This document shows, piece after piece, positions 1,675 to 22,066 of a DNA stretch of 64,000 bases. Source of the DNA: Escherichia phage CMS-2020a. The notes under the pieces were generated by a model. It saw only the letters and a program-made list of their open reading frames with translations, was not told where the DNA came from and did not search any database. The position numbers were made by a program, and so were the translations under genes. Where the stretch lies: the sequence record CP053388.1, one strand, 5' to 3'. Positions within the stretch are counted from its first letter, which is position 1. Each line of letters starts with the position of its first letter.

Positions 1675-1887
1675 TTAGTGTATTTTCTTTAACAGACCCC
1701 AAAGTGTTCCGGCTTTTGTAGTCAGTTTTCCTGTTTCTGGATCGTACATACGCCATTCACGCCGCTGGTGGACGATATACCCATCTTCACGTTCCAGACG
1801 CTCAAGAATGCCAGGCTGCTTGAAACCCTTAGCACGCCAGTAGCCGCTTGTTTTCTCGATTTCCAGACCTGCCAGTGTTAATGCCAT
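1675..1887 (-). CDS. hypothetical protein (70 aa)
   Basis: ORF whose stop region abuts start of next gene; last gene of leftward operon. Confidence 0.4.
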   Translation of the reverse strand: MALTLAGLEIEKTSGYWRAKGFKQPGILERLEREDGYIVHQRREWRMYDPETGKLTTKAGTLWGLLKKIH

Positions 1888-2768: not shown

Positions 2769-3194
2769 TCAATCTTCTTGTTTAGGGAAAAACTGTTCAA
2801 TAACTCTGTCAACGGCTGTGTCTATATGGAGTAGATGCCACACAACCATATCTTTGCTTCCCATGCCTTGTGTGAATATCACGTCATACTTACGCCATGC
2901 GCAGTGGAACCAATATGCTGAGTCATCAATTGGTAAATCCTCTCCCGCCTCTTTGAAGTATTTCAGCAGCATTGCCTGCTCTGCCGTTGGCGTTGGACCT
3001 ATTTCCTGAGCGTACATACGGATGAATCGCTGCCAGTCTGTCTCGTCGGGGGTTGGATCTGGTGGGGTCATTTCTGCGATAGCGTTTCGTAGCTGATGCG
3101 CCCAATCAGGTTCAGGAAAGCCTTTTGCTACTTCATCATCAATAACATCCAGAGCCACGTTTGCGGCATCGTAGAGTTTCTTAATAACTGTCAT
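2769..3194 (-). CDS. hypothetical acidic protein (141 aa)
   Basis: ORF; AAACAAATTGTTT palindrome about 20 bp upstream of its start. Confidence 0.45.
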   Translation of the reverse strand: MTVIKKLYDAANVALDVIDDEVAKGFPEPDWAHQLRNAIAEMTPPDPTPDETDWQRFIRMYAQEIGPTPTAEQAMLLKYFKEAGEDLPIDDSAYWFHCAWRKYDVIFTQGMGSKDMVVWHLLHIDTAVDRVIEQFFPKQED

Positions 3195-3285: not shown

Positions 3286-4116
3286 TTATTTCACTGTAAT
3301 GAAAGGAGTGTTAGCCCCTTGAGTCATGTACTGCGGTAACTGGCCATTCCATTTATTGATGGCTTCCAGCTCCATAACGTTCGGGTTTTGACGCAGAGCT
3401 TCACCGCGCAGACGAATGGCGTCTGCTTCTGCTTGCGCACGAGCACGGATAGCATCAGCTTCACCATTAGCCTGTTCACGTAGCATATTCGCCTCAGCTT
3501 TACGTTGTTCAACTTCCTGCTGACGTTGCAGAGTACGCTGGTTAGCCGTTACTTTGGCGTTGATAGATTCAATGACGGTTTTTGGGTAATCAGGCTTTCC
3601 AACCCATGACAGGCTCAGTACCTCAATACCAACCGGAGACATCTCTTTCTGAATATCTTTCAGTGCGTTGTCCAGCAATTGCGCCTTACCACCGTCGATA
3701 AATGAGTCAGTGGTCATACGGCTGGCCAAACGGTTTAGAGAGTCGGCAATTTTCTGACGCAGATCTGATTCGGTGATATCGTCTACGCCTTTGCGATAGG
3801 TCTGGAACACCGTCGTTACCTTGTCACGATTAACCAGATACGCAACGCCAATTTTGTGACCAATAGCAGTACCGTCACTCATCTGGAATGTGAACGGTTC
3901 GTCGTAGGTCTTCATTTGTTTGAAGGTCGGGAATACGTAAAGTTCGGTGTTAAGACCTGTCCATTGGCGACCAACGCCAACCACTTCACCGATCCCTTTG
4001 TCTTCACCTAATTTGTTTACTTTGATGCCAACGTATCCAGGCTCCACGCGATCACAGCCAGTAAGACCCATTGTGCAAATAGCCGCCAGAGCAACTGCAA
4101 GTAAACCTTTCTTCAT
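3286..4116 (-). CDS. SPFH/band-7 (stomatin/prohibitin-like) domain lipoprotein
   Basis: signal peptide with lipobox LTGC; C-terminal Ala/Glu/Arg-rich coiled-coil typical of SPFH proteins; domain call from recalled family features. Confidence 0.55.
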   Translation of the reverse strand: MKKGLLAVALAAICTMGLTGCDRVEPGYVGIKVNKLGEDKGIGEVVGVGRQWTGLNTELYVFPTFKQMKTYDEPFTFQMSDGTAIGHKIGVAYLVNRDKVTTVFQTYRKGVDDITESDLRQKIADSLNRLASRMTTDSFIDGGKAQLLDNALKDIQKEMSPVGIEVLSLSWVGKPDYPKTVIESINAKVTANQRTLQRQQEVEQRKAEANMLREQANGEADAIRARAQAEADAIRLRGEALRQNPNVMELEAINKWNGQLPQYMTQGANTPFITVK

Positions 4117-17809: not shown

Positions 17810-18220
17810 TTAAGGGTTAGTGAGAGCTTGAAATGCGGCCGCGTAGGCAGCGATATCGACCATAATTTTTGGATCTTTCGCGTACTGATGTGCGTTGTTA
17901 GGGAAGATTGCCAATAGGCTATACACATCTTGGAAATGTGCATGTTGACTGTAAACGAGTGCACGGTCGCTTGTGCAATTGAATCTGCTGCGGCTGCTGG
18001 TTCGTTCTTGCTTCGTGAACAAGAGATGAACGTGATAGACGCGGGAGGACACGATAGCACCAGGAGCCGTATACGGGCCATCTTTGCCGAATATGGCTGG
18101 GTACATGCCTTGTTTAAACGACTTGAAATCGTTGAGTAACGTAATCTCTAAGTCAGGCTTTATATCGAAGGTCGGCTTTAAAAATTGGGCGTAACTATCA
18201 CTGTTCCATGTGATCTTCAT
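17810..18220 (-). CDS. YafO-like toxin candidate
   Basis: motifs RVYHVHLL, FNCTSDRALVYSQHA, LLAIFPNNAH match my recollection of E. coli YafO; recall-based only. Confidence 0.45.
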   Translation of the reverse strand: MKITWNSDSYAQFLKPTFDIKPDLEITLLNDFKSFKQGMYPAIFGKDGPYTAPGAIVSSRVYHVHLLFTKQERTSSRSRFNCTSDRALVYSQHAHFQDVYSLLAIFPNNAHQYAKDPKIMVDIAAYAAAFQALTNP

Positions 18221-19352: not shown

Positions 19353-20261
19353 ATGATTGGTAAGTTGTCTGATTCTTTGATTGAAAATAAATACAACGAA
19401 TTTAGAGAAGAAATATCTTTACTTTTTGACTATTTAAATCAGATAAATGATACAACAAAGAAAAATATAAAACGTCTTCTTAAAGAAGTGGAGTATGCAC
19501 AGAATCCAGATACTATTATTAATATTAATGAAACTATTAAGATTAAGTGTGGCACAACGTTAGCTCGCCATTTATGTTCAAACCCATATACAGGTTCAAC
19601 ATTAGAGATAGGTAACAGCGCCATTGATTTAGAAGAAAAGATAAGATTGTGTAATACTTTGAAAAATAAACAATATCAGTGGGTTATTACTGAAGCCTAT
19701 GAGTTACTGGAAGACTATATTGAGGCAATATATGTCTATACTGTATGTGTTCGAAATGATTTATGGTCCTCAAGTGATTTTGGTAAGGTTGAAGATGATG
19801 AAATTGGGAAAAGGGAAGTTTATTACAGATTATTAAAAGCAAAAAGTAACCCATCGAAAAAAATAACTAAAATTTTCAGAAATAAAATACCTGGTTTCAA
19901 AGAGATAGAAACAAACAACAAGATTGGCAAAAACTATCGCTTTAACATCAAGCTAATTGAACTACTAAGACATACAATAGTACACAATAGTGGACGATTC
20001 AATGATACAGAAAAATTTATAAATAAGGTTTTAGATGAATCTGAAATAAACGGTAAGAAAAGAGTTATTGGAGAAAGAGCTGTTAGAAGTTACATTACTA
20101 AAGTGCAAGAAGATGATATTGTGATGCTCTTAGAAAGACCATCTGAAATTTTAGGTTCTTTTGGTGGGTATTTTAACAGAGCAAAATTTTTACTAAGTGA
20201 TATTTTAGAATACTCACTAATCATTAAAGAAGAACTAAAATCATATCTAGGCAATCATTAA
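19353..20261 (+). CDS. AT-rich foreign gene; HEPN-motif protein, possible Abi-like abortive-infection/defence protein
   Basis: GC content visibly far below neighbours; own AT-rich upstream region and terminator; RHTIVH fits Rx4-6H HEPN motif. Confidence 0.5.
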   Translation: MIGKLSDSLIENKYNEFREEISLLFDYLNQINDTTKKNIKRLLKEVEYAQNPDTIININETIKIKCGTTLARHLCSNPYTGSTLEIGNSAIDLEEKIRLCNTLKNKQYQWVITEAYELLEDYIEAIYVYTVCVRNDLWSSSDFGKVEDDEIGKREVYYRLLKAKSNPSKKITKIFRNKIPGFKEIETNNKIGKNYRFNIKLIELLRHTIVHNSGRFNDTEKFINKVLDESEINGKKRVIGERAVRSYITKVQEDDIVMLLERPSEILGSFGGYFNRAKFLLSDILEYSLIIKEELKSYLGNH

Positions 20262-20265
20262 CAAA

Positions 20266-20287
20266 AAAGGGGCCGAAGCCCCTTTGA
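20266..20287 (+). terminator. intrinsic terminator AAAGGGGC-CGAA-GCCCCTTT plus T-run
   Basis: GC stem-loop and T tract 5 bp after stop of 19353..20261. Confidence 0.7.
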
Positions 20288-20439
20288 ATTTTGCGCTGAA
20301 AAAAGTGTTGCTAGGATGTTAGCAAGCTATGGTTAAGAACGTCTGCCGTAATTGTCTATCACAGCGTTGAGCGGTCTGGTTTATGTTAGCGGAGTCTTAA
20401 TCTGGTTGATTAAAAGGCCAAACCGCTCAACGCTGTGTC

Positions 20440-20526
20440 TGGCGGAGAGTAATGGAATCGAACCATCATCGCTTGCGCAATGGGACGGTTTTCAAGACCG
20501 CTTGAGCACCATGCTCCCTACTCTCC
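20440..20526 (-). tRNA. tRNA-Ser (anticodon TGA), type II with long variable arm
   Basis: hand-folded: acceptor GGAGAGT/ACTCTCC, anticodon loop CTTGAAA, T-loop TTCGATT, encoded CCA; D-arm somewhat atypical. Confidence 0.55.
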
Positions 20527-20750
20527 GGCCGTTGTGGTGGCCGGTACTGAATCTCCGGCATACGGTGCAGCCAATTAGGACTACGGACGATCACCGCTCG
20601 CGAAAGGGAAGATTTGCGGCCGCATTTCCCTAACACCCAAGAAAGCTATCGCATCAGTCTGCGAATCCACCACAACGGTAAGATCACTACCTTTCGACCA
20701 GTCATTGTGCACATGAACGACGATTAACCGTAATGATCTTATCGTTGTAT

Positions 20751-20826
20751 TGGTGCCGGTTAACGGACTCGAACCGCTGACATCCTGCTTACAAGGCAGG
20801 CGCTCTACCAACTGAGCTAAACCGGC
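20751..20826 (-). tRNA. tRNA-Thr (anticodon TGT)
   Basis: hand-folded cloverleaf: acceptor GCCGGTT/AACCGGC, D-stem GCTC/GAGC, anticodon loop CTTGTAA, T-loop TTCGAGT, CCA encoded. Confidence 0.8.
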
Positions 20827-20830
20827 AATT

Positions 20831-20917
20831 TGGTGGGGAGTGATGGAGTCGAACCACCCGAGTCGCCATGACAGTAGATTTACAGTCTACACCGCTACCT
20901 CTACGGACTAACTCCCC
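20831..20917 (-). tRNA. tRNA-Tyr (anticodon GTA), type II
   Basis: acceptor GGGGAGT/ACTCCCC, anticodon stem-loop GTAGA-CTGTAAA-TCTAC, long variable arm, T-loop TTCGACT, CCA encoded. Confidence 0.7.
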
Positions 20918-20922
20918 TAAAT

Positions 20923-20997
20923 TGGCGATGGTGGGTGGATTCGAACCACCGACCAGTTGGTTAACAGCCAACTGCTCTACCGCTGAGCTACACCATC
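20923..20997 (-). tRNA. tRNA-Asn (anticodon GTT)
   Basis: clean cloverleaf: acceptor GATGGTG/CACCATC, D-stem GCTC/GAGC, anticodon loop CTGTTAA, T-arm GGTGG-TTCGAAT-CCACC, CCA encoded. Confidence 0.85.
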
Positions 20998-21775
20998 AAT
21001 TCGGCACTGCCAGTATTTATTACTCAACAGTGCCAATCGCGACGGTTTAGTTTCTGCCAGGAAACGCACCGCTACTTGCACTTTTCGTTAGTGCCAGACG
21101 CTTTCGACTTCGCTCAATAGTAGAAGGCAAAATCTTTAAGTAGATGATGTTTCTGAGGACAGCACCTACTTTGTTATTTATACAATGTAATGTATGGAAT
21201 CATTTGTTGTGAAAACAGGCACCAATGGCAACAGTGGTTAAACCTACACAACAATCCTGTCTTCACAACGTTGAGGCCACTACTCCGATTGAATGTTTGC
21301 CCAACATGTTACATATCAACGCTCGCCGGTATCTCTGTGAATAGAACCTTAGAATTGATAAAAATGTAATGGCCTCAACGTTGTGTGCTGGCTAACCATA
21401 CCAGCCGGGCTACGTCGCCGCTTTTTAACCCAGTATAAACGACATAATTGAACAAAATGACGTAACAGGATGGGCGGTCAGTGGCTAAGAATCCGGGAGT
21501 CATATGGAGTTGAAAATATACCGACCGCCCATTCTGTTACTTCATCGGAGGGAACACTCATGTTCCCTCCTGCGTTCTGCAATCACACTCGCTCAGTGTG
21601 TCCCATTTCGGTAACGAGGCTGGAAACTGACCTCGCTGGTGTTTGGCTTATTAGGCTACTGCCAGATAGACTTCTTCGTTTGCACTTGTATTTAAGTTCA
21701 AACAGTCGCGTCTCAACGAAAACAAAGTCATCTTATACATAAAAGATAAGTAAGTAAATACTTATCTTTGTGTTT

Positions 21776-22066
21776 TTATTCGGTTGTGGCTTTTTTGATC
21801 AAGGCCACTCTACGACTAGGTGTTCTTGTGATGGTGGCAGTGAACCGTTTCGCTTGGATAGTAATGGTTTCGTTCTCCTTAAGTTGCCCGTAGCGAGTTT
21901 CCACCAGGGTGCCAAGACGCCACAGACCATCATCGATACGTTTATGACTGGCAAATTTAATCAGCAGCAGTTTTACGACTAACTGACCTACGTAAAAGGC
22001 GAATGCGACTCCGGCCGCTAAGAAATAGGTGGCCAACCACCATTCCCAAGAAGTTAAATTGCTCAT
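21776..22066 (-). CDS. membrane protein (96 aa)
   Basis: N-terminal transmembrane segment; start overlaps stop of upstream small ORF. Confidence 0.45.
   Translation of the reverse strand: MSNLTSWEWWLATYFLAAGVAFAFYVGQLVVKLLLIKFASHKRIDDGLWRLGTLVETRYGQLKENETITIQAKRFTATITRTPSRRVALIKKATTE

Follow-up and report, generated by a model that had tools for sequence, protein, structure and literature searches.

In the 64,000-nucleotide (nt) stretch of Escherichia phage CMS-2020a analysed here (sequence record CP053388.1; the whole stretch is called the window), four minus-strand transfer RNA (tRNA) genes at 20440-20997 belong to a larger RNA operon of ~1.5 kb (~20262-21770, minus strand) that is free of open reading frames (ORFs). 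The operon is a chain of cassettes comprising a tag RNA, three H1 hairpins with CACAAC/GUUGUG boxes, D2-type RNAs and the four tRNAs, and the 224-nt spacer between its Thr and Ser genes (20527-20750) consists of one H1 hairpin and one D2 RNA, both supported by covariation. Its bounds are the stop of a 96-amino-acid ORF (21776) and a terminator (20262-20285), and the list of ORFs contains no long minus-strand ORF between 20262 and 21775. An initial annotation, made from the letters of the sequence, had the tRNA genes and their CCA ends right but did not see the larger operon with its tag RNA, which is akin to transfer-messenger RNA (tmRNA). The region shares 97-98% identity with Escherichia phage Cyrano and with many ~110-kb non-mobilizable E. 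coli plasmids, Salmonella phage SSU5 being a more distant relative of the element; on the strength of these relationships we assign the window, as a part, to an SSU5/Cyrano-like E. coli phage-plasmid.

Four tRNA genes and their cassettes

ARAGORN, run on the whole 64-kb window, returned exactly four tRNA genes with the coordinates and anticodons of the initial annotation, and an encoded CCA end is present in all four. They are tRNA-Asn (GUU; 20923-20997), the class II tRNA-Tyr (GUA; 20831-20917), tRNA-Thr (UGU; 20751-20826) and the class II tRNA-Ser (UGA; 20440-20526), which has an atypical D arm and begins 4 nt after D2. When checked with Rfam covariance models, Asn (75.5 bits), Thr (74.9 bits) and Tyr (41.6 bits) scored above the tRNA gathering score of 29, with E-values of 1e-14 to 2e-5, whereas Ser was borderline, its best match within the clan being to tRNA-Sec, where 46.6 bits fall just short of the gathering score of 47. 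We nevertheless accept the Ser gene because ARAGORN calls it, because the NCBI pipeline (RefSeq) annotates all four tRNAs, including tRNA-Ser, on a 98.9%-identical plasmid, and because it carries Ser-type acceptor features (G1:C72, G2:C71, A3:U70 and G73), along with a long variable arm and an anticodon loop identical to that of serT. All four anticodon loops are 7 nt long with U33 and a purine at position 37, and all four are identical to those of E. coli K-12 (CUGUUAA in asnT, CUGUAAA in tyrU, CUUGUAA in thrU, CUUGAAA in serT), with whole-tRNA identities to these host genes of 64-80%. A scan of the 64-kb window for signatures of a T arm, an acceptor and an NCCA end retrieved the four tRNAs and nothing else. 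The four genes are thus confirmed as real, far beyond chance, and are, as tRNAs, unremarkable for a phage.

The set of genes is modular and varies by cassette. The tRNA-Tyr gene is absent from Cyrano, P7 and D6 and appears as an insertion in the alignment; Cyrano, which has no Tyr gene, carries ACACAAU alone between Thr and Ser, and P1-like contigs have Arg(UCU) where the window has Asn. In P7 (L002, AF503408) ARAGORN also found a tRNA-Ser(UGA) at 3024-3110 (minus strand) that is unannotated in the GenBank record; D6 annotates its tRNA-Ser, with a note that tRNAscan-SE could not type the gene.

Tag RNA, D2 and H1

The core of the tag RNA (21584-21723, minus strand) was recognised from its sequence, from weak Rfam tmRNA matches and from its homologues. 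It comprises a GUUUUCG..CGAC motif (21705-21723), a tag frame (GCA AAC GAA GAA GUC UAU CUG GCA GUA GCC UAA UAA; 21648-21683) that encodes ANEEVYLAVA followed by two stops, a helix-5-like stem around the stop codons (21636-21665) and the hairpins of two pseudoknots (21614-21636 and 21584-21600), the stem and hairpins being read from the sequence. The tag of E. coli tmRNA is ANDENYALAA, which ANEEVYLAVA resembles, and related elements encode ANEDTYLAVA (SSU5), ANDDLMMAAA (P7), ANDDLMMVAA (D6), ANEEMYLAVA (HK620, Carvaje and BUCT610), ANDNVFLAVA (wV8) and ANDDVILMAA (24-32N). In the window, the core is followed by an SSU5-type, ORF-free extension (21386-21583) with hairpins at 21547-21570, 21470-21532 and 21387-21405, and this extension is 78-83% identical in SSU5 and in Klebsiella phage-plasmids.

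Homologues were collected by pattern-based scans, and all locus counts in this text are made among the matches listed, to be read as 'at least' the number given. In 87 of 87 distinct modules, retrieved by way of a pseudoknot motif unrelated to the tag, the frame of 10 codons and its stop are kept and the spacing downstream varies. Variability is greatest at the third codon positions (entropy of 0.94 versus 0.61 and 0.47 at the other two), which indicates a coding-type constraint on the tag frame. As in tmRNA tag frames, the frame starts at a GCA resume codon and runs through a hydrophobic end into a stop. A conventional small ORF was considered for the tag and rejected: the overlapping AUG or GUG frame encodes 5-9 residues, varies in length and has no Shine-Dalgarno sequence, and the tag frame itself lacks an AUG or GUG start and is preceded, 8 codons upstream, by a stop in the same frame. 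The helix-5-like stem and two H-type pseudoknots were 97.1% paired in an alignment of 30 diverse modules from relatives, compared to 26-45% in slid controls; 12 of the 22 pairs were compensated and none of 500 shuffles did as well. No pairing filter was applied to this alignment, from which the window's diverged SSU5-type copy, whose hairpins were read directly, was left out.

The tRNA half of tmRNA has no counterpart in the tag RNA, which lacks an acceptor with G3:U70, a T arm and a CCA end. Its matches to the Rfam tmRNA models stay under the thresholds (gathering scores 47 and 84), the window's copy reaching 14.4-14.5 bits and the copies of relatives 26-32 bits, and ARAGORN detected no tmRNA in the window and 11 related loci (P7, D6, HK620, Carvaje and SSU5 among those named). 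Since the defining tRNA-like domain is missing, we do not file the tag RNA as a tmRNA; it is best read, from its sequence, as tmRNA-derived and like the mRNA half of tmRNA without the tRNA half. A tRNA, a D2 or a T loop lies within 1 kb downstream at 93% of the tag loci. Directly 3' of the tag RNA, wV8 (L010) carries a D-arm-less tRNA-like RNA (~1699-1783, plus strand) with a covarying anticodon stem, a UCU anticodon loop and the alanine-type acceptor features G3:U70, A73 and CCA, in a position where relatives have a normal tRNA-Arg(UCU). Two N4-like viral contigs (L077 and L099) have ~150-nt tRNA-like RNAs with a 7-bp acceptor, a T arm and an ACCA end 3' of the tag RNA, at +120 to +270 and +255 to +385 from the start of the tag.

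D2 fills the Ser side of the Thr-Ser spacer. The initial annotation had described this spacer as tRNA-like fragments that would not fold into a cloverleaf, and there is indeed no canonical cloverleaf; the description was incomplete in that the segment holds a conserved hairpin and a tRNA-shaped RNA. This RNA, D2, is 146 nt long (20531-20676, minus strand) and was delineated by covariation and by its minimum free energy (MFE) fold, which recovers all four of its helices: P1 (20667-20676 with 20531-20540, of which 7 bp are best kept), the P2 hairpin in the position of a D arm (20649-20664), the variable insert P3 in the position of the anticodon arm (20560-20648) and the 5-bp P4 hairpin (20540-20559), which stacks on P1. 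It starts with the GUUGUG box that also belongs to H1 and is closed by CCACCACAAC. The loops of P2 and P4 kiss, ACUGA pairing with UCAGU in the window and GCUGA with UCAGC in the family version. In an alignment of 42 distinct homologues, three helices and the 5-bp loop-loop pair were 96.6% paired compared to 25-53% in slid controls, a percentage that is inflated by the filter used for collection (at least 7 of 9 P1 pairs and at least 4 of 5 P4 pairs); 9 pairs had changed on both sides and none of 500 shuffles was as good. The compensatory changes and the kissing pair, which was left free during collection, are unaffected by this filter. At alignment columns 19/46 of the kissing pair, GC occurs 35 times, GU 4 times and AU 3 times, with 0 mismatches, the A-U version being that of the window, P7 and one unrelated copy.

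The order of helices in D2 is that of a tRNA: pairs 3-9 of P1 (7 bp) abut P4 (5 bp) in a 12-bp stack resembling acceptor and T arm, and the kiss of five Watson-Crick bases takes the place of the elbow formed by the D and T loops. The length of the insert varies from 32 to 103 nt across homologues. In some members of the family the same acceptor bears canonical D and T arms, and this argues that D2 is tRNA-derived. We therefore describe D2, from its comparative sequence, as tRNA-like in architecture and tRNA-derived, but not a tRNA. Its sequence identity is 97% to the copies of P7 and D6 and 75-88% to those of unrelated phages, and in Klebsiella phage BUCT_49532 a solitary D2 with its own terminator lies beside an HNH endonuclease gene, which marks D2 as an independent gene. 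An Rfam search of 19800-21800 at E <= 10 returned the tRNAs and weak, chance-level matches, with nothing over 20527-20750 and no family for D2 or H1. The 3' flanks of D2 vary (GGCC, AAGUCC, AUAAC, UGUAAACC and others), and D2 as a chargeable domain was rejected, GCCA following the stem in HK620-type copies only. A tether between tag RNA and D2 by way of GGCGGC/GCCGCC was likewise dismissed, as it showed no covariation and the tag of BUCT610 differs although its D2 insert is the same. Whole-unit MFE folds were too noisy and were not used.

H1 is the third kind of RNA and occurs three times in the operon (all minus strand). Unit 1 (21264-21385) has a perfect 20-bp stem of CACAACGUUGAGGCCAUUAC and GUAGUGGCCUCAACGUUGUG under an 82-nt apical region (MFE -46.7 kcal/mol, z = -6.73), with covarying homologues in SSU5-like elements. 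Unit 2 (20671-20749) lies in the Thr-Ser spacer and has a 19-bp stem with one mismatch under a variable apical loop (MFE -28.6 kcal/mol, z = -4.49); UACAAC and GAUAAGAUCAUUAC pair with GUAGUGAUCUUACC and GUUGUG, such that the outer 6 bp are the boxes, and Klebsiella phage SCNJ1-C has a homologous loop with compensatory changes. Unit 3 (20360-20437) has a 20-bp stem (MFE -40.1 kcal/mol, z = -9.80) flanked by boxes (CACAGC/GCUGUG) that differ from CACAAC/GUUGUG by a compensated change. Across ~200 related loci the stem occurs in dozens of distinct compensated sequences between conserved flanks, the flanking boxes compensate too and the apical loop varies freely. On the strand of the tRNAs, G-U pairs outnumber A-C combinations in H1 (294 versus 127), which points to selection at the level of RNA. 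The stems, with 19-20 bp in the three units, have the length of the near-uninterrupted double-stranded RNA of about two turns (~20 bp) on which RNase III acts. In SCNJ1-C and wV8 a promoter lies directly upstream of the tag RNA and the 5' H1 is absent, an arrangement that fits a role of H1 in freeing 5' ends.

Other identities were tried for H1 and set aside. As an acceptor stem, in permuted or standard order, its basal stem has no CCA, no G3:U70 and a conserved U-U mismatch at position 3; as integron attC sites, IS200/IS605 ends, retron msr/msd or a group I intron, the inverted boxes differ in their core sequences, give no Rfam match and have no associated recombinase or reverse transcriptase. 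Some H1 apical loops hold a miniature tRNA-like domain without an anticodon arm (viral contigs L050, L026, L022 and L104; D6 (L003) 3500-3570, minus strand), made up of a D arm, GCGA-CGUCGGAGA-UCGC, and a T arm, GGGUUCGAAUCCC.

Flanking features, distribution and known relatives

At its 3' end the RNA operon is closed by an intrinsic terminator found by a terminator scan (20262-20285, minus strand), which abuts the stop of a convergent ORF (19353-20261) and is common to both. Upstream of tRNA-Asn, a consensus scan gave a sigma-70-like match (TTCACA-18-TACATT, then TGTATAAAT; 21184-21213, minus strand), and a long hairpin in D2 position (D2'; 21206-21269, minus strand) has a 14-bp closing stem between GUUGUGAAGACAGG and CCUGUUUUCACAAC (MFE -23.7 kcal/mol, z = -3.34). 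Directly 5' of the tag RNA, a hairpin read from the sequence as AAAGAUAAGUA-UUUAC-UUACUUAUCUUU (21742-21769, minus strand) may be either the terminator of the upstream 96-amino-acid ORF or a minimal H1-like stem. That ORF (21776-22066, minus strand) is conserved, has a hydrophobic N-terminus and no Pfam match, ends directly upstream of the RNA operon and keeps its synteny in Cyrano, SSU5 and E. coli plasmids. On the other side, the AT-rich ORF of 302 amino acids (19353-20261, plus strand; 28-31% GC) has homologues only on E. coli phage-plasmids of ~100-110 kb; identity among its alleles is 40-59% although the backbones around them are otherwise near-identical, and Cyrano has other genes at this site. 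The label 'defence-like' that had been given to this gene gained nothing from Pfam or PADLOC, neither of which returned a match, and the homologue search likewise suggested no function. A YafO-family type II toxin gene (17810-18220, minus strand; Pfam PF13957, 78 bits) lies ~2 kb from the operon of tRNAs and tag RNA; YafO is described as a ribosome-dependent mRNA interferase.

The modules are widespread. By blastn the tag region of the window has matches in 404 phage records, and HK620-type modules are present in 411 of 5426 complete E. coli genomes (~8%), where they are unannotated and 215 copies are chromosomal; nearly all of the species representatives with the tag pattern belong to Enterobacterales. 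Carriers of RNA modules include P1, P7, D6, SSU5, HK620, Felix O1-like and N4-like phages and Klebsiella siphoviruses. We found no annotation of tag RNA, H1 or D2 in the GenBank phage records, PLSDB tables and RefSeq entries inspected, and no description in the literature of the tag peptides, of phage tmRNA-like RNAs of this kind or of such RNAs in the P1 tRNA operon, full-text searches for the tags being empty; the text supplements of the tmRNA database paper contain no phage entries. Published surveys list phage tmRNAs only if ARAGORN or Rfam detects them (PMC4131195, PMC11915505, PMC9004378), and given their low tmRNA scores and the lack of an acceptor, the tag RNAs would be missed by the ARAGORN-based phage surveys (PMC9004378, PMC4131195).

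The nearest annotated counterparts are the ban operon tRNAs of P1, P7 and D6 (trnA Asn, trnT Thr), whose Asn and Thr genes are homologous to those of the window. P7 and D6 have the H1+D2+Ser segment in common with it (~92-97% identity), and P1 has the same tag RNA upstream of tRNA-Asn; the window's element differs from the P1 family in being an SSU5/Cyrano-like phage-plasmid with an added Tyr cassette. Records of the P1 family annotate the tRNAs and a 'dicF-like region' only, not tag RNA, H1 or D2. The module of P1 itself is of the P7 type and is unannotated but for this adjacent region (1409-1510 of locus L236 from NC_005856; record positions 68791-68892), which ends in a terminator-like hairpin and has the C1-controlled ban promoters on one side and the unannotated tag RNA on the other; with region and tag RNA in this place, the P1 ban operon begins with two non-coding RNAs. 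In HK620 (L009, 1040-1520, plus strand) a whole H1 - tag RNA - H1 - D2 array lies in the leader of the late operon, between pR'/qut and terminator tQ, and could be part of the short leader transcript from pR'.

Beyond these, permuted two-piece phage tmRNAs, such as those of OM43 phage Melnitz (PMC9004378) and of two low-GC viral contigs (L029 and L025), have in common with the tag RNA the resume context AAUAAAU|GCAAACGA, a 10-residue AN[DE].. tag ending in [AV]A, a stop in a helix-5-like stem, and pseudoknots. The two contigs contain bona fide permuted tmRNA genes (L029 340-697, tag ANDNAFLMAA; L025 8550-8787, tag ANEDAFLMAA) whose scores are 130 and 122 bits and in which T arm, acceptor and CCA end are all present, whereas the enterobacterial tag RNAs reach 14-32 bits and lack all three; by sequence the two contig genes are likely the canonical relatives of the enterobacterial tag RNAs. 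By analogy, the closest conceptual parallels are RNAs C and D of phage T4 and a relic of mycobacteriophage DS6A. T4 rnaC and rnaD (species 1 and 2) are likewise structured RNAs of ~120-140 nt arranged head-to-tail with tRNAs, rnaC ending in a T arm and an acceptor-like strand, but they have no sequence similarity by eye, and D2 differs in having a Watson-Crick kissing pair for the D and T loops and a variable insert; to our knowledge the function of rnaC and rnaD is still unknown. The relic of DS6A, which consists of the tRNA-like domain (TLD) only (PMC4131195), is like the tag RNA a phage-borne tmRNA fragment amounting to one of the two halves, DS6A keeping the tRNA-like half and the window the mRNA-like half.

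Codon supply, proposed mechanism and alternatives

Codons were counted in 43 non-overlapping ORFs of the window (16,990 codons) and compared with an E. coli codon table taken as background knowledge. On this comparison ACA, read by Thr(UGU), is enriched 2.63-fold and stands at the top of all codons, and UCU (2.07-fold) and UCA (1.96-fold), read by Ser(UGA), are among the top seven, whereas the codons read by Asn(GUU) (~1.2-fold) and Tyr(GUA) (0.95-1.17-fold) are not enriched. The adjustment of codon usage proposed initially is accordingly upheld for two of the tRNAs only: codon supply explains Thr(UGU) and Ser(UGA), not Asn or Tyr. The companion proposal, that element-borne Tyr and Asn tRNAs buffer against anticodon nucleases, fared less well. 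The proposed signature of nuclease-insensitive phage tRNAs is substitution in the anticodon loop (PMC10264068), and no such substitution relative to host isoacceptors is present in the four window tRNAs. With loops equal to those of the host, evasion of nucleases is not supported and only added supply could help; an extra supply by Asn and by the Tyr cassette is possible.

The explanation that we favour as a whole is that of an RNA operon of tRNAs, H1, D2 and tag RNA that is processed by the host and serves translation in phage growth. We consider it very likely in its structural and identity part and, taken as a whole, probable. Under this explanation one or two transcripts would be cut by host enzymes. 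RNase P would cut at the 5' end of each tRNA, and probably at that of D2 too, thereby setting the 3' ends of the preceding RNAs, and RNase III-type processing of the H1 stems would free GUUGUG to pair with the downstream CACAAC box and so close D2. Once mature, the products may serve translation, Thr(UGU) and Ser(UGA) supplying over-used codons and Asn and Tyr adding to the supply of tRNAs depleted by known nucleases, D2 may be a stable tRNA-mimic scaffold with a variable cargo arm, and the tag RNA may act in, or on, ribosome rescue. Cassettes could swap between phages by recombination at the repeated boxes. Several points weigh against this explanation. No acceptor, T arm or CCA partner for the tag RNA was found in the 64-kb window (the element's other 46 kb was not searched), and classical trans-translation therefore cannot be assumed. 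Sigma-70-like matches in the region are no more frequent than in shuffled sequence, the promoters being consensus matches alone, and it is from stem length alone that H1 is taken as a putative RNase III-type processing stem. The fold of D2 by itself is thermodynamically unexceptional (z = -1.57), a 3' CCA is not conserved in D2, which need not behave as a tRNA, and the GUUGUG box is able to pair with the upstream or the downstream box. The pairing filter for D2 homologues and the background E. coli codon table count on the same side.

It is doubtful that the cluster serves mainly to buffer the element, whether against anticodon nucleases or against toxins that cleave tRNAs (colicin E5 and the retron-associated PtuAB are examples), with the spacer being incidental. 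Colicin E5 targets Tyr, His, Asn and Asp tRNAs, codon supply fails for the Asn and Tyr tRNAs, whose codons are not over-used, and the Tyr cassette is gained or lost among near-identical elements, all of which speak for such a role. It also has published support in other phages (PMC10264068, which refers to Azam et al. 2023 for the replenishment of a depleted host tRNA by one from a phage); like the phage tRNAs proposed there as anti-nuclease (T5 tRNA-Tyr, Azam et al. 2023, as cited therein), the window carries Tyr and Asn, known nuclease targets, but it differs from them in having no anticodon-loop substitutions relative to the host. The four host-identical loops without the signature of insensitivity thus stand against it, as does the good account that codon usage gives of Thr and Ser, and the conserved structured RNAs of the operon are left unaccounted for.

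The remaining alternatives concern these structured RNAs. It is unlikely, in our judgement, that we are dealing with a non-canonical two-piece tmRNA, in which the tag RNA would complex with a tRNA-shaped partner (D2 or, in other phages, the tRNA-like RNAs placed after it), the two together carrying out trans-translation with a phage-specific tag. The protein-coding-type constraint on the frame, the tRNA or tRNA-like gene that follows at 93% of tag loci, the 12-bp acceptor/T-like stack and elbow mimic of D2, the ACCA-ended tRNA-like RNA directly 3' of the tag RNA in some relatives, to which wV8 adds G3:U70 and A73, and the GCCA after the D2 of HK620 are what one would expect of such a molecule. 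Against this, D2 is generally without CCA and without G3:U70, in the window H1, D2' and three tRNAs lie between it and the tag RNA, no tethering base pairing was found between the two (the one candidate complementarity not covarying), and ARAGORN and Rfam recognise no tRNA-like domain. Less probable again is that the tag RNA is an uncharged decoy that disturbs ribosome rescue in the host, through titration of SmpB, S1 or RNase R for instance, with D2 and the tRNA-like H1 loops acting as decoys for tRNA-binding factors or defence sensors. SmpB binds the tRNA-like domain of tmRNA, and this known site is missing here; moreover, a pure decoy needs no translatable frame, yet the length of the frame and its codon-position pattern are conserved. 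The loss of the acceptor domain with retention of the mRNA-like domain and pseudoknots would suit a decoy, as would the HK620 module's place in a leader that runs from pR' to the late terminator tQ, and a reverse-case precedent is provided by the TLD-only tmRNA relic of DS6A and by similar molecules that inhibit tmRNA in E. coli (PMC4131195, PMC11915505). That the spacer and the other non-tRNA segments have no RNA function at all, and are decaying tRNA or tmRNA pseudogenes or DNA recombination sites that shuffle cassettes, we hold to be very unlikely. Such an origin could account for the tRNA fragments in H1 loops, for the high variability of the apical loops and the D2 insert, for the direct ACAAC repeats that flank the H1+D2 unit, which is precisely absent in Cyrano, and for the existence of 'empty' GUUGUGGC..CACAAC sites. 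It is countered by the many independent compensatory substitutions in H1, D2 and tag RNA, by the excess of G-U on the transcribed strand, by the covarying loop-loop tertiary pair of D2, by the strict conservation of a 10-codon frame and by conservation across unrelated phage families.

As to what the operon means, the tRNA genes are routine when taken alone, but they mark an RNA-only operon whose other products are unannotated and without an Rfam family in much-studied coliphages, and the lesson for annotation is that the tRNA 'spacers' of phage genomes can harbour conserved genes. D2 and H1 look like natural counterparts of the engineered 'tRNA scaffold', that is, conserved, processing-competent frames with variable RNA cargo, and they are a concrete candidate for the movement of tRNA cassettes between unrelated phages. 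Tentatively, and as a possibility that we would not yet wager on, enterobacterial phages and phage-plasmids may share an undescribed RNA system in which an acceptor-less, tmRNA-derived tag RNA with its 10-codon frame still under coding selection is co-transcribed with tRNAs and D2 scaffolds and punctuated by processing hairpins. A selected tag frame without a tRNA half calls into question whether a tag template has to be joined to an alanyl-tRNA-like domain, and if the tag is truly translated, the system would either bring a tmRNA template to stalled ribosomes by a new route or hijack host trans-translation in infection.

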